Source: an uncultured Candidatus Saccharibacteria bacterium
GTDB taxonomy: Bacteria; Patescibacteriota; Minisyncoccia; Phycocordibacterales; UBA9973
Direction: 5' to 3'
DNA length: 64,000 bases
Assembly (NCBI GenBank): GCA_964348725.1
Contig: CAYGDG010000003.1
Span: 30,775 to 94,774 of the forward strand
Below, in pieces: positions 17,683-63,464 of the stretch (positions are counted from its first letter, which is position 1; each line of letters starts with the position of its first letter). Made by a program: the position numbers and the translations under genes. A model generated the notes under the pieces. It did not search any database. It had not been told where the DNA came from and saw nothing but the letters and a program-made list of their open reading frames with translations.

Positions 17683-18063
17683 ATGAGTAAAATAACTAAA
17701 GAAATCAGGTTATTGGCCTGCTCTGCTCTGCTTTTGGGAGGTGTTTTCCTCTTCTCCTACTCTTCTGTTTTCGGTGCTGCGGGCGCGATTGATTTTGGCG
17801 GAAATATGATAACGAGCGTGGTGGAATGCACCTGCAGCACCGGTTCTCAGATCTCTGTTACCGGTTATGGACGCAAAAATTCAAAACATACCGGTACATA
17901 TTTATACACTCCAGGGACGATAGTCATCAAAGGAAAGGTGGAGCCCGGCAAAAAAATTATCGGCCAATACACCTCTGGAGGAGGCCAATGTTTGATAACA
18001 GGAACCCCATGTGAAAAATTGCCTATAACTAAAGGCACGTTTAAGATCATCAGCACTAATTAA
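17683..18063 (+). CDS. Small secreted Cys-containing protein, divergent from T4SS-like operon
   Basis: 126 aa from internal ATG of ORF 17614..18063; N-terminal hydrophobic segment LLACSALLLGGVFLFSYSSVFGAAGA; 6 Cys. Confidence 0.45.
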   Translation: MSKITKEIRLLACSALLLGGVFLFSYSSVFGAAGAIDFGGNMITSVVECTCSTGSQISVTGYGRKNSKHTGTYLYTPGTIVIKGKVEPGKKIIGQYTSGGGQCLITGTPCEKLPITKGTFKIISTN

Positions 18064-18883
18064 CAGTTTTTGTTATTTGTATCCAATCTGTAAGCGTGAG
18101 TTCTTCCGCACGGGTATTTATGGGTATATCAGTGGGTAATTTCGCTATATTTTTCAGGTTTCCAGCCAGTATCTTGCGCTTATGTGCAAAGCCGGCGCGG
18201 ACAATAGTCCAAAATTTTTCTTCATCTACTGCTTTTTGCCCAAAAAGCTTGCGGTTTAGGTCTGTAATAGCTATAACCGCCGAATCCACCTTCGGCGCCG
18301 GGGAAAAATACCGCGCCGGCACTTTCATCACCATCTTCGGATTACCATATGCTTTGACCGATATGGAAAGGATGCTTTCTTTACCATCGTTCGCGATAAT
18401 TCTCTGCGCCACTTCCCTCTGTACGAGCAATACCATGCGCTCTGGCTGATTTTTTTCCGTCAAAAACTTTTTCAATATCGCGCCTGTGATGTTGTACGGT
18501 ATGTTTGCTATTACTTTATACCTCACCCCCTGCCCCCTCTCCTTATCAAGGAGAGGGGAAATTTCAAACTCCAAAATATCTTCATTTTTTAAAATTAATT
18601 TTTTATTTTGTATTTCATTCGCAAATTTTTCCTGCAAGTATTCAAAAAGCTCTGAATCTTTTTCCACGGCGATGACTGTCGCCCCTGCGCCAAGCAATTT
18701 TTCCGTCAGCGCACCCTTACCGGGGCCGATTTCAAGCACAATGTCTTTTGCATTCACTTCACCCGCCGAAATAATCGCGGTCAGCGCCGCTTGCGATTTC
18801 AAGAAATTCTGCCCGAGTGATTTTTTTGCTCTGTGTCCAGGCCCGGCCTGGACAGTAGATTTGGTTTTATATTTTTTCATCAT
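18056..18883 (-). CDS. rsmA: 16S rRNA (adenine1518/1519-N6)-dimethyltransferase RsmA/KsgA, carrying two in-frame palindromic repeat insertions
   Basis: GHRAKKSLGQNFL, VLEIGPGKGALT (SAM site), ANIPYNIT motifs; REP-A at 18834..18854 and hairpin repeat at 18520..18558 lie inside the ORF. Confidence 0.85.
   Translation of the reverse strand: MMKKYKTKSTVQAGPGHRAKKSLGQNFLKSQAALTAIISAGEVNAKDIVLEIGPGKGALTEKLLGAGATVIAVEKDSELFEYLQEKFANEIQNKKLILKNEDILEFEISPLLDKERGQGVRYKVIANIPYNITGAILKKFLTEKNQPERMVLLVQREVAQRIIANDGKESILSISVKAYGNPKMVMKVPARYFSPAPKVDSAVIAITDLNRKLFGQKAVDEEKFWTIVRAGFAHKRKILAGNLKNIAKLPTDIPINTRAEELTLTDWIQITKTVN
18520..18558 (-). repeat. 37-39 bp hairpin repeat family C (RPE-like), copy 1, in-frame inside rsmA
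   Basis: rc = CCCCTCTCCTTGATAAGGAGAGGGGGCAGGGGGTGAGGT; encodes SPLLDKERGQGVRY within KsgA. Confidence 0.7.
18834..18854. repeat. REP-A palindrome copy 1 (TGTCCAGGCCCGGCCTGGACA)
   Basis: Perfect 19-21 bp palindrome; 13 bp downstream of RAYT1 stop, inside rsmA N-terminal codons. Confidence 0.8.
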
Positions 18884-19526
18884 ACGTAAGCCAATTTTCT
18901 ATTTCTGCTTTTACTTCATCCGTATTTTGAAAATAATCCGGAAATGGGCTCTTTTCCAGGATCTTTTTCTCCGAGCGTTCCAGATTCAAATAATCCACAT
19001 AGCTTGAAAAATTAAATTTTTTCAAGTATTCTTTCGCGCCGGAAATATTTTTTAAGCCGGCTTCCTTCCATCGCGGCTCTATTATTTTGAGTGGATTGAG
19101 ATGAATATAAGCGTATAAGTATTTTAAATAATTGTCGTTTTCGACATGCTGCGATTTTGTTTTTCCCTGAAAAAGAGATCCGCTCCGGTCATATTTTTTG
19201 TTGAAATATGTGGAATAACTTGTGAGTAATTTTAAAAGAAACTGGCTTGCATCTTTCTCATTTTTGATCCGTACAAGAATATGAAAATGATTCGGCATTA
19301 GGCAATACGCCCCGATATCTACCAAACTCTCCCCTCTTTCCACTGTCCAGGCCCGGCCTGGACTTGTCTCAGCGTCAGAATATTTCGGCGATTCTTTGCC
19401 GTTGCATAAATAAAGTAGCTTATGAAATCGCGCATAATCTTTTTCATCCTTGAAAATCGTCATTTTATTTGTCCCACGATTATACAGATGATAATACTCC
19501 CCTTGGGCAAAAGGTATTTTCCTCAT
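18867..19526 (-). CDS. REP-associated tyrosine transposase / IS200-like Y1 HUH transposase (RAYT1)
   Basis: 219 aa; GEYYHLYNRG, HUH motif CLMPNHFHILV, catalytic Tyr region LLTSYSTYFNKKYDRSGSLFQG; flanked by REP-A. Confidence 0.75.
   Translation of the reverse strand: MRKIPFAQGEYYHLYNRGTNKMTIFKDEKDYARFHKLLYLCNGKESPKYSDAETSPGRAWTVERGESLVDIGAYCLMPNHFHILVRIKNEKDASQFLLKLLTSYSTYFNKKYDRSGSLFQGKTKSQHVENDNYLKYLYAYIHLNPLKIIEPRWKEAGLKNISGAKEYLKKFNFSSYVDYLNLERSEKKILEKSPFPDYFQNTDEVKAEIENWLTYDEKI
19345..19363. repeat. REP-A palindrome copy 2, in-frame inside RAYT1
   Basis: GTCCAGGCCCGGCCTGGAC; encodes SPGRAWT within the transposase. Confidence 0.8.
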
Positions 19527-19539
19527 CCTCCTATTATAC

Positions 19540-19560
19540 TGTCCAGGCCCGGCCTGGACA
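19540..19560. repeat. REP-A palindrome copy 3
   Basis: TGTCCAGGCCCGGCCTGGACA, 14 bp upstream of RAYT1 start. Confidence 0.8.
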
Positions 19561-19648
19561 AGGGTCTGTGATACTTGACTTTTTATTCTCTTGGGTGTAT
19601 AATCTAGAAAATACTGAAATGAACTACACTCTTTAAAAACACAAAACT

Positions 19649-20299
19649 ATGAAAAAACTTATGATCGTCCTCGCACCTTTGGTGATGTTGCTTGCTTCTT
19701 GCGGTATGTCACAGGAAGAAAAATTGCGGTATTCGGCAAAATCCGGCAATGCCGCGGAGGCGCTCTTTGGCGAATCCGCGATAACGCTTCCCACTGCGCT
19801 CAATCTGAACACAATTTCACCGGTAGATTCTTTCACCGTCCCGGCTCTCAAAAAGAGCTTTGATCCGAAAGAATTGATCAATGAGTCCGGCGGCATCGCG
19901 AACTTCTATATTTTTAGCAGTTTTCAAAAAATTCTGGACGATTTCAAGCCCGTGATGCTCGATACATATCCTATGAACATAAAAATATGGGAGACGGTGA
20001 AGAGCACTACTGATCTTGAAATTTTTGCTCAAATCAGGACCGAGCCGATGAGCGAAACGGAATTTGTGAAACTCTTCGTATATCTTATTTCCAAGCAGCC
20101 AAATGGCGAGCCGGGGAAATTGCTTACGAGCGGATACGCGAATATTTTCCATGTCCGCACAAGCTCCGGAGCGTCGGTCGCTCTCTACGCGGGCTGGGGC
20201 TCCGTCAGCGAGCGCTGGTATGTGCACGCGCGCGGCCTCGATTCTTGGGACGGTGGCGAACGCGTCTTTTCCCGGGGCAATGAGCCCTTGGATTCTTAA
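19649..20299 (+). CDS. Lipoprotein of unknown function
   Basis: 216 aa; lipobox MLLASCG; C-terminal ALYAGWGSVSERWYVHARGLDSWDGGERVFSRG duplicated downstream. Confidence 0.6.
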   Translation: MKKLMIVLAPLVMLLASCGMSQEEKLRYSAKSGNAAEALFGESAITLPTALNLNTISPVDSFTVPALKKSFDPKELINESGGIANFYIFSSFQKILDDFKPVMLDTYPMNIKIWETVKSTTDLEIFAQIRTEPMSETEFVKLFVYLISKQPNGEPGKLLTSGYANIFHVRTSSGASVALYAGWGSVSERWYVHARGLDSWDGGERVFSRGNEPLDS

Positions 20300-20347
20300 A
20301 CTCTTGGATTTTGGTTTTTAAAACTTAGATCCTTAGAAACTTATCAA

Positions 20348-20380
20348 ATGCCCTTGCAATTTTTGCAAGGGCATTTTCTA
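20348..20380 (+). terminator. Rho-independent terminator of lipoprotein gene
   Basis: ATGCCCTTGCAA-TTT-TTGCAAGGGCAT 12-bp stem followed by TTTCT. Confidence 0.7.
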
Positions 20381-20453: not shown

Positions 20454-20745
20454 TTGAATTTCGAGAGCTTGGCCGGGTATGCCTTGCCGGGGAGTGGGAT
20501 TCATATTCCGAAACAAAAAATATTTTGCCCGTGGCGGGCGCTGGAGGATTTTAGATCCCAGATAAAATACAGCACGATCCCTGATATAAGTTATGCTTGG
20601 GTCGGCAGTGGCGCAGGTGGCGCTTGCCACACAGCGACGGTCGCTCTCTACGCGAACTGGAACTCCGACAACGAGCACTGGAATGTGAACGCGAACGACC
20701 TCGATTCTTGGAACGGAGGCAAACGCGTCTTTTCCCGATGCAGAT
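20454..20745 (+). pseudogene. Truncated paralog/remnant of lipoprotein gene 3' end (no in-frame stop before running antisense into pcrA)
   Basis: ~125 bp direct repeat of 20160..20290 at 20620..20745 (~80% identity); encodes ATVALYANWNSDNEHWNVNANDLDSWNGGKRVFSRC; preceded by extended -10 TGTATAAT at ~20389..20396. Confidence 0.4.
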
Positions 20746-20784
20746 CATTTTTTCCCGCCAGCAAAAGCCGGCGGGATTTTTTTT

Positions 20785-20803
20785 GTCCAGGCCCGGCCTG
20801 GAC
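20785..20803. repeat. REP-A palindrome copy 4
   Basis: GTCCAGGCCCGGCCTGGAC immediately after CCCGCC...GGCGGG hairpin; overlaps pcrA stop codon by 1 nt. Confidence 0.8.
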
Positions 20804-22812
20804 TAGATGTAAATGGTTTTTATGCCGCTGTCTTCCCCTTCTTTCTCCAAAATATCCGCTGGAATATCCTGTAAGAATTCACTCGGCGCATTTATCTGGC
20901 GGGAGCCGAAGATGGTGCGGAAGTTCGCGAATGACAAATGCAGTTTTTTCTTGGCGCGGGTGAGGGCCACATAAAACAGGCGGCGTTCTTCCTCGGCATC
21001 TTCGGCGCTTTTTCTGTCGCCGTCTCTTCTGTGCGGGAACAATCCGTCTTCTAATCCGGTGATGAATACGGTGCCGAATTCCAAGCCCTTTGAAGCGTGC
21101 ACGGTCATCAGGCGCACGGCGTTTTTGTTTTCTTTCTTGGTTTCCGTAATCATCATGGAGTCCTGATCGCTGGCGAGTGATGCATCCTCTAAAAGTTTTT
21201 CCACGCCCGCCCCGGCGGGTAAACCGGCACTGCCTTCCAGGTTGTCATATTTTAAGGCGAGCGTGGCGAGCTCTTTGATGTTCTCCAATCGCTCCACATC
21301 TTCATCCGTGCCGTTTTTCAATTCTTCTTCAATGCCCGAGCGCTTCACGGTGAAACGAATTACTTCGCTTGTTTTTGCCGTCTGGATTTTTTCTTGTATT
21401 TCTTCAAGTGTTTTGTAGAAATTTTGAATTTTGAGTTGCATCTTTATCGGCAGTTCTGCTTTTTGTCCGCTGAAAAGTTTTGCCATCGTCGTCTTGCCGA
21501 TACCACGTGCCGGAAAATTGATGATGCGCTTGATATCCGACAGGCTTTCCGGATTCAAAGCCGCGCGGAGGTATGCCAGGGTATCCTTGATTTCCTTGCG
21601 CTCAAAGAATTTTACGCCGAGCACTTGGTATGGGATGTTGTAGCGGAGGAGTGCTTCTTCCAATGCGCGGGATTGGTAGTTTGCTCTATATAGTACCGCG
21701 ATGTCGGCGAAAGAGTTTTTCTCAGTCGCTCGGTTCTCCTCGCTGTCGCTCGGCCACTCCTTCAAAAAATCTCTTTCACCGACATCGCAGATTTCCAAAA
21801 TTTTCGTCGCCACGAATTCCGCTTCCTCGCCTTCGCTCAACGCTTCATATAATCCGATCTTCTCCCCCGCCGCATTCTTAGTAAAAAGATTCTTGTCCGG
21901 GCGGAATTTATTTTTCTTGATCACATTGTTCGCCGCTTCCAAAATATTCTGCGTGGAGCGGTAATTTTCCTCAAGCAACACTATCTTTGCATTCGGGTAA
22001 TCTTTTTCAAATGATAAAATATTTTTCAAATTTGCCCCGCGCCAGGAATAAATATTCTGGTCAGCATCACCCACTGCTGTAATATTTTTATGCTTCTCCG
22101 ATAGCAGGCGTGTCAGCATATATTGCACCTCATTCGTGTCCTGATACTCGTCTATATGAATGTACTGCCAGCGGTCTTGGTATATCTGGCGTATTCCCTC
22201 ATTCTCTTTTAAAAGCCGCGTCGCTTTCAAGAGCAAGTCATCAAAATCCAGCGAATTTTCTTTCGCTTTTTTCTTTTCGTATGACTGCCATACCTGTGCC
22301 ACGATTTTGGAAAGATAGTCGCTCGCATTTTCAGCATAGACAGCCATATCCGTGAATTTTCCTTTCTCGCGGCTGATGATATTCCGTATCTTTTTCGGTT
22401 CGTATTGCTTTGGGTCCAAGCCGATTTCTTTTAAAGATTCTTTTACCATGGACGCGGTATCTCCCTCATCCAATATCGTAAAATATTTTGTCAGTCCCAA
22501 AGCGCGCGCATTTTCTTTAATAATAAAAACTCCGAGCGAGTGAAAAGTGGAGACGAACGGCACGGTACTCTGCCCCTTGGCATTTTTTTCAATTTCAGCG
22601 ATGACGCGCTCACGCATTTCTTTGGCCGCTTTGTTTGTGAAAGTGACGGCCAAAATATTCTCCGGCGCGATGCCCTGCTTGATGAGGTTCACGATTCTGT
22701 GAGTTATTGTTTTCGTCTTCCCCGCGCCCGCACCAGCCACGATAAGAAGCGGCCCGTCTTTATGCTGGGCCGCTTCTTTTTGTGCGTCATTTAAGCCGTG
22801 GAGGTGTTCCAT
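20803..22812 (-). CDS. pcrA: ATP-dependent DNA helicase PcrA/UvrD family
   Basis: 669 aa; Walker A AGAGAGKTKT, motifs TFTNKAAKEM, DEYQDTN, VGDADQNIYSWRGA, VHASKGLEF. Confidence 0.85.
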   Translation of the reverse strand: MEHLHGLNDAQKEAAQHKDGPLLIVAGAGAGKTKTITHRIVNLIKQGIAPENILAVTFTNKAAKEMRERVIAEIEKNAKGQSTVPFVSTFHSLGVFIIKENARALGLTKYFTILDEGDTASMVKESLKEIGLDPKQYEPKKIRNIISREKGKFTDMAVYAENASDYLSKIVAQVWQSYEKKKAKENSLDFDDLLLKATRLLKENEGIRQIYQDRWQYIHIDEYQDTNEVQYMLTRLLSEKHKNITAVGDADQNIYSWRGANLKNILSFEKDYPNAKIVLLEENYRSTQNILEAANNVIKKNKFRPDKNLFTKNAAGEKIGLYEALSEGEEAEFVATKILEICDVGERDFLKEWPSDSEENRATEKNSFADIAVLYRANYQSRALEEALLRYNIPYQVLGVKFFERKEIKDTLAYLRAALNPESLSDIKRIINFPARGIGKTTMAKLFSGQKAELPIKMQLKIQNFYKTLEEIQEKIQTAKTSEVIRFTVKRSGIEEELKNGTDEDVERLENIKELATLALKYDNLEGSAGLPAGAGVEKLLEDASLASDQDSMMITETKKENKNAVRLMTVHASKGLEFGTVFITGLEDGLFPHRRDGDRKSAEDAEEERRLFYVALTRAKKKLHLSFANFRTIFGSRQINAPSEFLQDIPADILEKEGEDSGIKTIYI

Positions 22813-45202: not shown

Positions 45203-45219
45203 AAAATTGAAATAAAAAA

Positions 45220-45247
45220 ATCCCCACATGTCCGACATGTGGGGATT
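45220..45247. terminator. Terminator hairpin (strong for minus-strand gene 45270..45686, possibly bidirectional)
   Basis: AATCCCCACATGT-CCG-ACATGTGGGGATT; A-run on plus side upstream. Confidence 0.6.
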
Positions 45248-46630: not shown

Positions 46631-46710
46631 AATAAAATTGACGCTAAAATTAATAATTTTTTGGTGTACTTATGATACAATAAACGGAACGAGGCATATT
46701 ATGTCCATTA

Positions 46711-46731
46711 GTTAGCGCTTTAGACCCTAAC
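46711..46731 (+). repeat. REP-B copy 1 (GTTAGCGCTTTAGACCCTAAC)
   Basis: 11 bp upstream of RAYT2 start; exact reverse complement at 47401..47421. Confidence 0.75.
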
Positions 46732-46742
46732 TTATATATATT

Positions 46743-47405
46743 ATGCGCAAAGAACCTTTAATAACAGGAGAGTATTATCACATTTATAATAGAGGCGTTG
46801 ATAAAAGAGATATTTTCAACGATCTCCACGACTCGGAGCGTTTCAAGGAAAGCATCAAAGAATTCAATCAAGTAGATATAGTGGGCAGCCTGCAACGACA
46901 GCATAAAGTAGTTAGGGCTTTAGACCCTAACTATTGCAAAAAACCGCTCGTCGCCATCGTTTGTTTTTGTGTTAATCCTAACCATTTCCATTTTGTTCTA
47001 AAACAGTTGGTTGATGGCGGAATAGCAAAATTCATGCAGAAACTTCTTGGCGGGTATACTTCTTTTTTTAATCAGAAACATCAGCGGTCAGGGTCTTTAT
47101 TTCAAGGAACATTTAAATCAAAATTATTGAGCGATGAAGGTTATTTCAGAAAGATTTTCGCTTATGTTAATCAGAATTATTTAGTGCACTCCATACCGGC
47201 AGAGAAATTGAAATTTATTTTTGCCAGCGATGCGGAATACAGCAAAGGGAATTTTGATTTTATTGACGCTCAAGAGGGGAAAGAGATGCTTGAAGTTTTT
47301 GATGGGGAAGCCGGTTTTAAAAATCATTGCAAAGAAATCATAAGTCTCATCAGGGAAGAGCGAGGCGCGCCTTCCTTGAATGAACCGGATGAACTGCCTT
47401 GTTAG
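46743..47405 (+). CDS. REP-associated tyrosine transposase / IS200-like Y1 HUH transposase (RAYT2)
   Basis: 220 aa; GEYYHIYNRG, HUH CVNPNHFHFVL, LLGGYTSFFNQKHQRSGSLFQG; paralog of 18867..19526. Confidence 0.75.
   Translation: MRKEPLITGEYYHIYNRGVDKRDIFNDLHDSERFKESIKEFNQVDIVGSLQRQHKVVRALDPNYCKKPLVAIVCFCVNPNHFHFVLKQLVDGGIAKFMQKLLGGYTSFFNQKHQRSGSLFQGTFKSKLLSDEGYFRKIFAYVNQNYLVHSIPAEKLKFIFASDAEYSKGNFDFIDAQEGKEMLEVFDGEAGFKNHCKEIISLIREERGAPSLNEPDELPC
46911..46931 (+). repeat. REP-B copy 2, in-frame inside RAYT2 (GTTAGGGCTTTAGACCCTAAC)
   Basis: 7-bp arms GTTAGGG/CCCTAAC; encodes VVRALDPNY. Confidence 0.75.
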
Positions 47406-47421
47406 GGTCTAAAGCGCTAAC
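47401..47421 (-). repeat. REP-B copy 3 (inverted), overlaps RAYT2 stop
   Basis: GTTAGGGTCTAAAGCGCTAAC. Confidence 0.75.
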
Positions 47422-47471
47422 CGTAAGGTATTACATTCCACATGCCTGTAAAATAATGCTAGAATATCATC

Positions 47472-48733: not shown

Positions 48734-50281
48734 ATGAGTTTCGCTCGCGTATATTCCGCGCAAGTGAGCCTCCTCGAAGGTCAAATAGTTACCATAGAAG
48801 TGGACACCTCCCGCGGTCTGCATTCTTTCTCCGTTGTCGGCTTGCCGGATAAGGCGGTGGATGAGTCTAAAGATCGCGTGTCTTCCGCTATCAAGAATTC
48901 GGGTTACAAATCACCGAAAGCACAGAATCAGAAAATCATCGTCTCCCTTTCGCCGGCAGACCTGAAAAAAGAAGGACCGTTTTTTGACCTGGCCATCGCT
49001 CTTTCTTATATGCTCTCAGCCGGGGATATAAAATTCGATCCGGAGAAAAAAATATTCCTCGGTGAGCTTGGACTCGATGGAGCGCTGCGGCGTACGCGCG
49101 GCGTGTTGCCTATTGTGCAGGAGGCAAAAAAGCGCGGCTTTGAAGAAATTTATCTGCCGATGGAAAATGCCGAAGAAGCAGCTTTAGTTTCTGACATCAA
49201 AATATTTCCAGCCGGCAGCCTACGCGAAGTGGCGGATCATATCAATACGCTGCGCGATATGCCTGAAGGGAAACGCCGACAGATAACCGTGCAGCCGCAG
49301 ACGGAAATAAAATATGAAGCCAAGCGTGGCGGAGAATTTGCCGATATTCGCGGTCAGGAGAGCGCCAAGCGCGGGCTTGAGATCGCCGCTGCCGGCGGGC
49401 ACAATATAGCGATGTACGGCCCGCCGGGCACAGGTAAGACAATGCTCGCTCGCGCTTTTACCGCACTCCTGCCTGATTTGTCGCTTGAAGAAGTGCTGGA
49501 GATAACCGGCATTCATTCGGCCGCAGGTGCAGCGCGTGGGGAGCTCGTGTCCTCACCGCCCTTTCGCGCACCGCATCATACTTCTTCATATGTATCGCTC
49601 ATCGGTGGCGGTACTTTTCCGAAGCCAGGTGAAGTGACCCTCGCCCATCGCGGAGTATTATTTCTTGACGAATTTCCGGAATTTGAAAAGCGCGTGCTGG
49701 AATCTTTGCGTCAGCCGCTTGAGGATAATGTCGTCTCCATCGCTCGCGCCAAAGGCACCGCCATCTTCCCGTCAAATTTTATTCTGGTCGCCGCCATGAA
49801 TCCGTGCCCGTGCGGCAATCAGGGCAACAAACAGAAAGCATGCATCTGCAAGCCGACTGACCTGGACAGATACAAAAGAAAACTTTCCGGACCGATAATG
49901 GATCGCATTGATCTATGGGTGTCGGTAGGAAACATTGATTATAAAAAGCTTGGCGAAGAAGGCGGCGGCGAGCGCACCGAACACATCCGCGCCCGCGTGG
50001 AAAAAGCGCGAGAAAAACAGAAAGAAAGATTTAAAAATGCGGGCCGGAATATCCGCGCGAATAGCGATATGTCAGCCAAAGACCTTTCTGTACTCATCAA
50101 GCTCGCGCCCGAAGTGCGCGAAGTCTTGGATAACAGCGCTGAACGCCTCGCGCTGTCCGCCCGCGCATACCACCGCGTCATCAAACTCGCCCGCACCATC
50201 GCCGACCTGGAAAACAGCGAAGACGTCAAAGAAAATCACATCATGGAGGCGATACAGTATCGGCCAAAAGTTAATTTATAA
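48734..50281 (+). CDS. comM: YifB/ComM Mg-chelatase-like AAA+ protein
   Basis: 515 aa; Walker A GPPGTGKTM, Walker B VLFLDEFPEF, Cys cluster CPCGNQGNKQKACIC. Confidence 0.85.
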   Translation: MSFARVYSAQVSLLEGQIVTIEVDTSRGLHSFSVVGLPDKAVDESKDRVSSAIKNSGYKSPKAQNQKIIVSLSPADLKKEGPFFDLAIALSYMLSAGDIKFDPEKKIFLGELGLDGALRRTRGVLPIVQEAKKRGFEEIYLPMENAEEAALVSDIKIFPAGSLREVADHINTLRDMPEGKRRQITVQPQTEIKYEAKRGGEFADIRGQESAKRGLEIAAAGGHNIAMYGPPGTGKTMLARAFTALLPDLSLEEVLEITGIHSAAGAARGELVSSPPFRAPHHTSSYVSLIGGGTFPKPGEVTLAHRGVLFLDEFPEFEKRVLESLRQPLEDNVVSIARAKGTAIFPSNFILVAAMNPCPCGNQGNKQKACICKPTDLDRYKRKLSGPIMDRIDLWVSVGNIDYKKLGEEGGGERTEHIRARVEKAREKQKERFKNAGRNIRANSDMSAKDLSVLIKLAPEVREVLDNSAERLALSARAYHRVIKLARTIADLENSEDVKENHIMEAIQYRPKVNL

Positions 50282-50285
50282 AAAT

Positions 50286-50672
50286 ATGCAAAAAGATTTT
50301 GATTCTTGGAACAGACTTAAAAAAGAGATTGACCGAAAAGACATTACAAGAGAGAGATTTTTCAACGAACGAGAAATATATTGGGGTTCTTTGGGTTTAA
50401 ATATCGGTTTTGAACAAGACGGCAAGAACGAAAACTTTGAAAGACCGCTTTTAATAATAAGAAAGTTCAATAGAAATATTGTCTGGGCGGTCCCGCTTAC
50501 GAGCGTGGCTAAAGAAAACAAATTTCATTTCAAATTTAAAAATAGCGGTTCTTTTGTGATTCTTTCGCAAATCCGACTCGTAGATACGAAAAGAATGCTC
50601 CGTTTGATAGAAAAAATAAACGAAGAGGAATTCAAAGAAATTGTCTCTAGAATAAAAGCTCTTTTCCCATAA
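50286..50672 (+). CDS. MazF/PemK-like endoribonuclease toxin (no obvious cognate antitoxin)
   Basis: REIYWGSLGLNIGFEQDGKNENFERPLLII ... VWAVPLTS; starts 4 nt after comM stop. Confidence 0.55.
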   Translation: MQKDFDSWNRLKKEIDRKDITRERFFNEREIYWGSLGLNIGFEQDGKNENFERPLLIIRKFNRNIVWAVPLTSVAKENKFHFKFKNSGSFVILSQIRLVDTKRMLRLIEKINEEEFKEIVSRIKALFP

Positions 50673-50681
50673 AAAGCGAAA

Positions 50682-50699
50682 CCCCGCCGTGAGGCGGGG
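50682..50699 (+). terminator. GC hairpin after MazF-like gene (no clear T-run)
   Basis: CCCCGCC-GTGA-GGCGGGG. Confidence 0.4.
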
Positions 50700-50776
50700 A
50701 ATCTCGGGGGACTTACGTCCATTTACCTTTATAGTATATACCTATTAAAAACTAAAGTCAAGCATCTCATATAGAT

Positions 50777-50995
50777 TTAATGATTTAAAAGCCGTTTTTC
50801 AAATTTCTCCGCTATGATAGAAATTCCGCCGGAGGCGACAATAACTAAAAGACCCATAAAGACACCGCCCGCAATGTCATCGTCGGGCCGAACTATGAAT
50901 AAGTATGCTTCCCCGGTAAGAATAAGAGCAAGGACGGCTCTCGCGCAGTATTTTATAGTTCGCGCTATGAGAAGAAATGTTTTTGTTCGTTTCAT
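50777..50995 (-). CDS. Small membrane protein
   Basis: 72 aa; two hydrophobic helices. Confidence 0.4.
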   Translation of the reverse strand: MKRTKTFLLIARTIKYCARAVLALILTGEAYLFIVRPDDDIAGGVFMGLLVIVASGGISIIAEKFEKRLLNH

Positions 50996-50996
50996 G

Positions 50997-51194
50997 TTAT
51001 TTATATTCCAAGATATCGCCGGGCTGGCACTCTAAAGCTTTGCAGATGGCTTCCAATGTCGGCAGACGAACAGCTTTTGCTTTTCCGTTTTTCAAGATAG
51101 AAAGGTTCGCCATCGTTATGCCCACTTTTTCTGAAAGCTCGGTCAGACTCATTTTTCTTTTCGCCAGCATTACATCTAGGTTTATGATAATCAT
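50997..51194 (-). CDS. XRE-family HTH transcriptional regulator (Cro/CI-type)
   Basis: MSLTELSEKVGITMANLSILKNGKAKAVRLPTLEAICKALECQPGDIL. Confidence 0.7.
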   Translation of the reverse strand: MIIINLDVMLAKRKMSLTELSEKVGITMANLSILKNGKAKAVRLPTLEAICKALECQPGDILEYK

Positions 51195-51198
51195 ATAT

Positions 51199-51702
51199 TT
51201 ATACAGTTAAGTCGTTCTCATTTTTCATATCAATCGCATTTTGCAAGAGCCGCTCCAGCACTTCGGCGCATATGCCGACAGTTATCGGTACGCAGGCGAA
51301 GACAAAACCGAACAAGAGAAGGCCCGGCGCATCATCCGCATCGGCGATAGGGTAGAGGAGGGGCAAGCCGGAGAGATATATGATACCGATGATGACCGCC
51401 GCGTATTTTATTTTTTTCAAAGCCCGCATAGATTCGTCCGAAAAAGTTTTCCCTTTATCAATATAGCGGAGTAATTTCAAAATCTGCCACAGTCCGAAGA
51501 AGAAAGGTATCACGGTGGCATAGAGGCCCAGCACGAGAGGAGGGAACACATAATAAAGCCCCGGAAATTCTATCGGACCGTCTTTCCAGATGCTTGGAAA
51601 TACAAAAATGCAAAAAAGAACCACAATTCCTACTATCACGAACAAAGCTACTTTTAATATGAGCGTCGCGCCCTTTCTCACTATAAGATTATTTTCTTTC
51701 AT
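51199..51702 (-). CDS. Polytopic membrane protein (DUF2975-like partner of XRE regulator)
   Basis: 167 aa, 4 TM; adjacent to XRE regulator. Confidence 0.45.
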   Translation of the reverse strand: MKENNLIVRKGATLILKVALFVIVGIVVLFCIFVFPSIWKDGPIEFPGLYYVFPPLVLGLYATVIPFFFGLWQILKLLRYIDKGKTFSDESMRALKKIKYAAVIIGIIYLSGLPLLYPIADADDAPGLLLFGFVFACVPITVGICAEVLERLLQNAIDMKNENDLTV

Positions 51703-63340: not shown

Positions 63341-63428
63341 GGTGCGTTTGTTCAGGTTAGTGTTGTGTTTTATTGTTTTGTTTTTACAAATTATAGTATA
63401 TTTTTATGATAAAGTCAAAAAACACAAA

Positions 63429-63464
63429 CCCCTCTCCTTTTCAGGAGAGGGGTAGGGGTGAGGT
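63429..63464 (+). repeat. Hairpin repeat family C copy 3 (intergenic)
   Basis: CCCCTCTCCTTTTCAGGAGAGGGGTAGGGGTGAGGT. Confidence 0.7.

Follow-up and report, generated by a model that had tools for sequence, protein, structure and literature searches.

Each of the two RAYT genes, RAYT1 and RAYT2, in a 64,000-nt stretch of DNA from an uncultured Candidatus Saccharibacteria bacterium (GenBank assembly GCA_964348725.1, contig CAYGDG010000003.1; the whole stretch is referred to here as the window) was found to contain, in frame and shortly upstream of its HUH motif, a copy of the same repetitive extragenic palindrome (REP) that flanks the gene. By comparison of homologous sequences, this internal palindrome is an old trait of the RAYT family of Patescibacteria and not the result of two fresh insertions. 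At every carrier locus the internal copy has the sequence of the flank copies, in many cases over 19-27 nt, and the palindromes themselves are specific to lineages (for example TCCAAGGTCGAACCTTGGA, CCAGGAAGGCCGGGCCTTCCTGG, CAGCAAGGTCGGACCTTGCTG, GTGAGAGCTTTAGACTCTCAC, and GGGGAGAGGTTTAGACTCTCCCC).

The palindrome associated with RAYT1, REP-A (GTCCAGGCCSGGCCTGGAC), has a 9-bp stem and a 1-nt centre, and that associated with RAYT2, REP-B (TAGTTAGGGCTTTAGACCCTAACTA), has a 9-bp stem and a 7-nt loop. The internal REP-A (19345-19363, minus strand) encodes SPGRAWT (amino acids 56-62) in the connector between alpha1 and beta2, and the internal REP-B (46909-46933, plus strand) encodes VVRALDPNY (amino acids 56-64); both palindromes are centred on codon position 2. 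These two in-frame copies had been noticed in a sequence-only reading of the window and were confirmed. The same reading had placed them at one aligned position, which was borne out by their distance to the HUH motif: from the palindrome centre downstream to the NHFH Asn codon there are 62 nt in RAYT1 and 59 nt in RAYT2, so that the two differ by one codon, and both palindromes lie within the same gapped connector; in the BLASTP alignment, however, the palindromes are offset by 7 residues. Its estimate of about 15 residues before the HUH motif was also sound, the peptide ending 17-18 residues before the first HUH histidine. The spacing between the 5' copy and the internal copy is 196 nt in RAYT1 and 200 nt in RAYT2.

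The RAYT1 open reading frame (ORF; 18867-19526, minus strand) encodes a Y1/HUH protein of 219 amino acids with NHFH at amino acids 79-82 and the tyrosine helix YIHLNP, and the RAYT2 ORF (46743-47405, plus strand) encodes one of 220 amino acids with NHFH at amino acids 80-83. The two proteins are 39% identical (BLASTP), are the sole products of their type encoded within the window, and match Pfam Y1_Tnp (PF01797) with 31.9 bits (RAYT1) and 34.4 bits (RAYT2) at a cutoff of 23. Across 30 sequences, no variation was seen at N79, H80, F81, and H82 of NHFH or at Y140 and N144 of YIHLNP, and conservation reaches 90% or more at I141, H142, L143, and P145. A profile of the family gave no match against PDB at E<=0.01, and a fold search was needed instead: the best Foldseek match of the AlphaFold model of RAYT1 (pLDDT 91) was the E. 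coli RAYT in complex with a REP hairpin (4er8_A, E=8e-7), and the TnpA proteins of IS608 and ISDra2 came next. Scores against the RAYT equivalog of NCBIfam (NF047646) were 40.2 and 25.7 bits, below the curated cutoff of 80, which marks the two proteins as members of a distinct, longer subfamily and not as equivalogs of the proteobacterial RAYT. Homologues number in the thousands, and those that are named come from Patescibacteria (Yonathbacteria, Nomurabacteria, Paceibacterota).

For the family survey, 160 homologous loci were fetched (designated by L numbers where they need to be told apart); the gene could be defined in 154 of them, which gave 156 genes including RAYT1 and RAYT2. Flanking inverted copies of one palindrome are present at RAYT1, RAYT2, and most of the 156 homologous loci. 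An internal copy of the gene's own flank palindrome was found in 38 of the 156 genes (24%), always at the pre-HUH site, and the remaining genes of this broad sample have a decayed remnant there or nothing. In a neighbour-joining tree the carriers are scattered over several clades. When each ORF was scanned for 13-mers shared, with at most one mismatch, with its own flanks, and the hits were binned by distance to the HUH motif, 30 fell 60-90 nt upstream of it, compared with no more than 5 in any other bin. A scan blind to the flanks, for GC-rich perfect hairpins with a stem of at least 7 bp, identified such hairpins within 75 nt before the HUH motif in 24 of 156 genes, compared with 1-3 genes in other ORF windows and 5 in the adjacent upstream window. 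No strong hairpin differing from the gene's own flank palindrome was found at the pre-HUH site among the 156 genes, and the prototype rayT of E. coli has no internal REP.

Retention is far more complete near the two window genes. Orthologues of RAYT1 were obtained by exact-protein look-up, by which four proteins were traced to contigs, the metagenome scan having given only genes of 44-54% identity. All four relatives (57-70% identity) lie directly 5' of rsmA, as RAYT1 does, and this constant position identifies them as orthologues at a fixed locus; the 5', internal, and 3' copies are all present in 5/5 of these syntenic genes (the window, L161, L163, L164, and L165). In the RAYT2 subfamily, all seven sampled genes (RAYT2 and six relatives of 61-71% identity, in varied genomic contexts) carry a perfect or near-perfect internal copy in agreement with their own flanks, four stem sequences being represented among the seven, and the peptide motif [RK][AG]L that the internal copy encodes is present in 120/120 of the best RAYT2 homologues. 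The alignment of homologues that the sequence-only reading had proposed as a check thus gave a divided answer: every sampled RAYT1 orthologue and RAYT2 subfamily member has its local REP at this position, but only 24% of the broad sample does.

The internal copy also changes in step with the flanks. Among the RAYT1 orthologues, the window and L161 share an inner stem of GGCC/GGCC, and L164 and L165 one of GGTC/GACC; all three copies (5', internal, and 3') show the change, and in the ORF it replaces GCC (Ala) by ACC (Thr), so that SPGRAWT becomes SPGRTWT. When 33 internal copies were aligned by their centre, stem positions were paired in 88% of cells, double-sided changes occupied 57 cells compared with 19.7 +/- 3.8 in shuffles, and the covariation score was 0.444 compared with 0.09 or less for slid partners; because carriers had been chosen by their match to palindromic flanks, this pair count measures the diversity of matched palindromes and is not an independent test of structure. 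Across 76 proteins, covariation of reverse-complement codons amounted to 56 compatible pairs, compared with 47.7 +/- 2.2 in shuffles. Both loop orientations occur among close relatives, with CGA in L001 and TCG in L045. The internal palindromes of L026 (ORF nt 157-188), L085 (156-189), and L027 and L032 (both 162-189) are perfect over 27-33 nt (31 nt in L026 and 33 nt in L085) and exceed the flank copy in length. In the core they match it, and the outer pairs of their stems occur only in the coding copy.

The length of the connector speaks to the age of the internal copy. The distance from YNRG to HUH averages 61.6 amino acids in carriers and 60.2 in non-carriers, whereas an insertion would add 6-9 amino acids, and non-carrier sisters have a segment of the same length in which the palindrome has decayed (IQNQPL beside IQGLPL; LHGKTL beside LQGSTL). 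Fresh insertion was rejected on these two grounds: relative to non-carriers the internal copy of the RAYT gene is not an insertion, in contrast to the copies in the rsmA gene of L161 (see below), which are insertions relative to the orthologues. The connector as a whole exceeds that of E. coli RayT by about 25 amino acids, and an early in-frame gain in the common ancestor of the family may account for this. In 33 of 35 carriers the automatic assignment put the palindrome centre on codon position 2, and reading of the sequences of L033 and L035 gave the same position for these. With this phase, each codon of one arm is the reverse complement of a codon in the other (pairs Q/L, G/T, P/W, E/F); a flip of the element therefore keeps the frame, alters only the central residue, and yields a near-identical peptide, so that overwriting by another copy would be harmless.

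Three lines of evidence bear on the level at which the copy is constrained. At stem offsets 3-9, 226 cells are Watson-Crick pairs, one is G:T, and 18 are other combinations (19 departures in 245 cells). In the five RAYT1 orthologues, codon identity at conserved residues is 46/53 within the palindrome, compared with 44-54% gene-wide; and the non-carrier L013, which has the same flank palindrome as the carrier L047 and has lost the internal copy, keeps G.TL but spells it with ACA and CTG, where the codons that pair would be ACC and TTG. The encoded peptide, finally, varies by lineage (PGRAW, QGRTL, EGRTF, QGLPL, IGLPY, VRALDPN). Watson-Crick pairing, frozen synonymous sites, and a variable peptide together place the constraint on DNA and not on RNA or protein; the internal palindrome thus appears to be held at the DNA level, with the protein accepting whatever peptide results.

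Upstream of RAYT1, the 5' REP-A (19540-19560, minus strand) lies 14 nt from the ATG and inside a promoter-like site (19533-19561). The left foot of the palindrome supplies TTGTCC, which is followed after 17 nt by TATAAT and, 6 nt further, by the ATG; the arrangement TTGTCC-17 nt-TATAAT is kept at RAYT1 and at all four orthologue loci, with the ATG 4-8 nt after it. Of 147 genes of the family, 96 have a TATAAT-like box whose end is 3-10 nt from the ATG, and in 70 of these the distance is exactly 6 nt, compared with 1/147 in a control window; a Shine-Dalgarno-like sequence was found in only 4 of the 147. A -10 box this close to the ATG and the rarity of Shine-Dalgarno sequences suggest leaderless mRNAs, from which the 5' copy would probably be absent, and the genes of the RAYT family are probably expressed as such. 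The 5' REP-B (46709-46732, plus strand) ends 10 nt before the RAYT2 ATG and is followed by TATATATATT; a consensus promoter scan called no site at this copy. Distances between the 5' and internal copies range from 180 to 226 nt across the family and are evenly spread with no helical phasing, and DNA looping between these two copies was rejected for this reason.

At the other end of the genes, the 3' REP-A (18834-18854, minus strand) lies 12 nt beyond the RAYT1 stop codon, and the 3' REP-B (47400-47422, minus strand) is inverted and contains the RAYT2 stop codon (TAG, 47403-47405), as the 3' REP does in four RAYT2 relatives (L166, L167, L169, and L171). In all, four REP-A sites, with identical copies of the palindrome, are present in the 64 kb, compared with 0.00 expected by chance, and TAGTTAGSGCTTTAGACCCTAACT (REP-B) has three, also against 0.00 expected and all at RAYT2. 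Every copy but one is at a RAYT gene and several are intragenic; the sole copy away from RAYT1, the fourth REP-A (20784-20804), is at the 3' end of a uvrD/pcrA-like helicase gene 1.2 kb off. No GTAG (or CGTC) tag at the 5' foot of the hairpin is common to the copies, GTAG standing 3' of one of the four REP-A, and no tag or guide beyond the palindrome is consistently shared by internal and flank copies, except ACAGT after the hairpin in RAYT1 and its orthologues.

The explanation that we favor, and to which we would give an even chance, is that a copy of the cognate REP has long resided inside the gene, where it serves as a substrate of RAYT, is tolerated in the protein, and evolves in concert with the flanks. 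RAYT would act on the internal hairpin as it does on those of the flanks, as a single-stranded DNA hairpin substrate, and cleavage and strand transfer between neighboring copies would repeatedly rewrite the internal copy with the current flank variant; alternatively, template switching during replication between the closely spaced palindromes may overwrite it. In vitro, TnpA-REP cleaves 5' or 3' of REP hairpins and performs strand transfer (PMC8266576). Feedback on RAYT expression is possible and is not required by the data. Of the functions suggested in the sequence-only reading, a self-recognition or cleavage site and a templated hotspot both fit the evidence, and taken together they form its best explanation.

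Several points weigh against this explanation. Binding and cleavage by RAYT at the internal copy are inferred for this family, and we know of no description of a length-neutral hairpin exchange in which one REP replaces another. If two copies on one strand were cut 200 nt apart, the promoter would presumably be lost together with the first 55 codons, which should be costly. The copy appears to be kept almost throughout the RAYT2 subfamily and is kept in all RAYT1 orthologues, a pattern that resembles the outcome of purifying selection for a function more than that of neutral tolerance. In the RAYT2 relative L170 the palindrome centre is in phase 0. Flank copies number 2.34 in carriers and 2.14 in non-carriers (p=0.14), and with numbers so alike there is no sign that carriers are the more active systems. 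For want of this difference, the proposal that carriers are the more repeat-rich systems was rejected. Incompatibility with the reading frame was rejected as a general cause of absence, as 35 non-carriers have flank palindromes that are open in the phase concerned; in the CTAGG-TCTTG-CCTAG clade the palindrome would read TAG in the usual phase.

Autoregulation is the main alternative, although we consider it rather unlikely. Here RAYT would bind the promoter copy and, about 200 nt downstream, the internal copy as an operator or roadblock, thereby limiting its own synthesis, and selection would keep the two matched. It is common for a transposase to regulate itself through a promoter that overlaps its binding site, and here the 5' copy is indeed built into the core promoter and conserved in all orthologues, with the -10 box 6 nt before the ATG throughout the family; HUH Y1 enzymes, however, bind single-stranded hairpins and not duplex operators, and the 5'-to-internal spacing is not helically phased. 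The retention of the internal copy in the RAYT2 subfamily and RAYT1 orthologues, like the frozen synonymous sites, would be accounted for by such a role, but the copy is dispensable in the 76% of the broad sample that lack it and keep their flank copies.

It is a doubtful proposal, put forward here tentatively, that RAYT carries its own hairpin as a working part, be it an internal operator, a self-limiting cleavage site, or a protected master copy that regenerates flank and dispersed REPs, with REPs that are coding-compatible. If this were true, REPs would be open in every frame, centred on a codon, and the same in both orientations; the gene of the enzyme and nearby genes would constitute the REP habitat in gene-dense Patescibacteria, and specificity would be physically coupled to the enzyme's own sequence.

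It is improbable that selection preserves the peptide (PGRAW, QGRTL, RALDS) as a protein motif, from whose coding segment the flank palindromes would derive. The segment is ordered in the model, with a short helix at 58-61 and pLDDT of about 85-87, but the peptide differs freely between lineages, and it changes exactly as pairing demands (GGC/GCC to GGT/ACC, Ala to Thr). Non-carriers retain part of the peptide (G.TL), and [RK][AG]L is universal in the top 120 RAYT2 homologues; against this, synonymous sites are fixed in carriers and drift in non-carriers.

No more probable are independent, recent in-frame insertions into one permissive loop, seen through survivorship after local REP hopping and with no common ancestry. 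REPs do insert in frame beside RAYT, as the three extra copies in the L161 rsmA show; rare copies occur at other RAYT loops (L054, L157), and the RAYT2 palindrome, which has a 7-nt loop, is read in another register than the main type, AGG being one of its codons. Carriers, however, are not 6-9 codons longer, their non-carrier sisters have the equally long segment with a decayed palindrome, and the codon phase is uniform in 38 carriers even though REP-A and CAAGG-type palindromes are open in all three frames. The view in the sequence-only reading that the feature is conserved and that independent insertion is unlikely is upheld by the single homologous site across the family and the similar connector length.

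Least probable is the mRNA hairpin of the sequence-only reading, acting in the transcript through ribosome pausing, as an RNase barrier, or in translational control: the folding check it had proposed did predict stable hairpins (in context, -19.7 kcal/mol for the internal REP-A and -16.7 kcal/mol for REP-B; z-scores -2.2 and -2.4), the 3' copies stand at or within a few nt of the stop codon, and REPs near a stop codon are said to affect translation in E. coli, but the pairing pattern is not that of RNA, as a structure selected as RNA would be expected to tolerate wobble and G:U makes up 1 of the 19 departures, the internal hairpin always equals the flank DNA palindrome and is never an arbitrary hairpin, close relatives have opposite loop orientations (L001 and L045), the 5' copy is upstream of the -10 box and probably untranscribed, and an Rfam scan of the window found only tRNAs and no known RNA family at the palindromes.

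Copies of REP-A also lie in frame in the gene downstream of RAYT1. The rsmA gene (RrnaAD; 18056-18883, minus strand) overlaps the 3' end of RAYT1 by 17 nt at its start, and the 3' REP-A is read within it at amino acids 10-16, as TVQAGPGH at the N-terminus; the Pfam RrnaAD match begins only at amino acid 17. This copy is in frame in 5/5 rsmA genes, the orthologous loci having TVQARPGR, DVQGRPGQ, KVQVGPGH, and TVQVGPGH at about nt 1447-1500. Three further in-frame copies, at nt 1760, 1907, and 2174, are present in the L161 rsmA and absent from that of the window. In the RAYT genes themselves, REP copies at other loops are rare (L054, ORF nt 264-292; L157, nt 455-480, around amino acid 155). As far as can be read from these loci, the palindromes are ones that move and are tolerated in frame inside genes.

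A second palindrome family, CACCTCACCCC..CCCCTCTCCTT...AAGGAGAGGGG, has one member in frame in the window rsmA (18534-18558, SPLLDKERGQG) and another at 63428-63453. In the rsmA loop that holds the 18534 palindrome, L161 and L163 have REP-A instead (QAGPGQ and QGGPGQ; nt 1772 in L163), L161 having two more in-frame REP-A copies besides the one in this loop, and the loop looks like a palindrome hotspot just 5' of the codons TAT AAA (YK). In the RAYT clade of L054, L019, L056, and L063, an insertion of 8-11 amino acids directly follows the HUH strand; in L054 it is a perfect copy of the flank palindrome (ISPRQDLGEI), which is decayed in the relatives. In L171 (Ga0265292_1000082, 49044-51306), the RAYT2 relative lies between two His_Phos_1 genes, and these between two CYTH genes; the cassette looks as though it were at the centre of a local duplication.

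Other repeats were noted in the window. A perfect palindrome with a 14-bp stem, AATCCCCACATGTCCGACATGTGGGGATT (45219-45247), directly follows the stop codon of pnp (PNPase) and resembles the flank palindrome of another RAYT lineage (L019, TTTCCCACATGTCGGACATGTGGGAAA); a third RAYT as its owner was searched for in the window and not found. A direct repeat of 110 nt, 84% identical, is located at 20170-20279 and 20633-20742, and duplicates the 3' part of a lipoprotein-like gene (19649-20299) into the region before the REP-A at 20784. Another palindrome with a 14-bp stem, AAATGCCCTTGCAATTTTTGCAAGGGCATTT (20346-20376), lies between the two copies of this repeat.

The closest known system is the REPtron, as represented by rayT/yafM of E. 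coli and the RAYTs of Pseudomonas and Stenotrophomonas. Shared with it are the Y1/HUH protein with the RAYT fold, the bracketing of RAYT1 and RAYT2 by inverted copies of a lineage-specific palindrome, the inheritance of RAYT1 at a fixed locus (here beside rsmA), and the presence of several distinct RAYT/palindrome pairs in one genome. The loci described here differ from it in the third copy, which lies inside the ORF at a conserved site and has no counterpart in E. coli rayT, in the low number of palindromes (4 + 3 in 64 kb) and the missing 5' GTAG tag, in a protein about 55 amino acids longer, its connector by about 25, and in having a 5' copy in a leaderless-type promoter and a 3' copy that often holds the stop codon. 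The high-copy extragenic dispersal of REPs and REPINs is likewise not seen within the 64-kb window.

Palindromes that are read through inside genes have been described as intragenic REPs (Di Nocera et al. 2013; PMC3733652). Like these and the Rickettsia palindromic elements (RPEs), the internal copy is a short palindrome translated within a protein, in a surface connector, and the rsmA copies are plain examples of the kind; unlike them, its host gene encodes the enzyme presumed to mobilize that very repeat, and it occupies a conserved site in a large family, in covariation with the flanks and with no length polymorphism.

Nicking or initiator sites lie within their own genes in phiX174, where the origin is inside gene A, and in pT181, where it is inside repC. 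As in these, the cis site of an enzyme that processes single-stranded DNA is located within that enzyme's coding sequence, so that DNA site and peptide constrain each other. Those sites, however, are essential origins of autonomous replicons, whereas the gene here is chromosomal, most of the family can do without the internal copy, and no role in replication is indicated. IS200/IS605 elements (IS608, ISDra2) also have a Y1 HUH transposase and recognize subterminal hairpins at both ends as single-stranded DNA; they differ in that the flank hairpins here are perfect, inverted palindromes and RAYT1 is syntenic and not multi-copy. We know of no IS200/IS605 element with an end-like hairpin inside tnpA.

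REPs flanking RAYTs, REPs and RPEs read through in genes (PMC3733652), and the co-evolution of RAYTs with their repeats are already known. What is new is that the gene of the enzyme itself holds the cognate repeat, in frame and at a conserved site, and that this copy covaries with the flanks across a large family of Patescibacteria; new as well is the compact cassette with one REP in the leaderless promoter, one in the connector, and one at the stop codon. The sequence-only reading had judged the internal copy not to be a commonly reported property of RAYTs; in agreement with this, no description of a REP inside a RAYT ORF was found in the RAYT and REP literature searched, whose coverage excludes subscription journals and which offers absence of evidence only.

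RAYT and REP are a leading model of domesticated transposases that co-evolve with their repeats, and they raise the question how enzyme and repeat are kept matched. Here a change in the repeat shows directly as an amino-acid change in the enzyme (Ala/Thr, Pro/Gln, Trp/Leu), and the copies at the flanks and inside the gene lend themselves to direct comparison in RAYT binding, in cleavage, and in repeat homogenization. The internal copy is also a built-in label by which each RAYT can be paired with its repeat in metagenomic data, and a natural example of a DNA-level constraint that appears to override protein sequence. Together with the in-frame copies in rsmA, it indicates that the palindromic repeats of very small genomes reside partly within genes.

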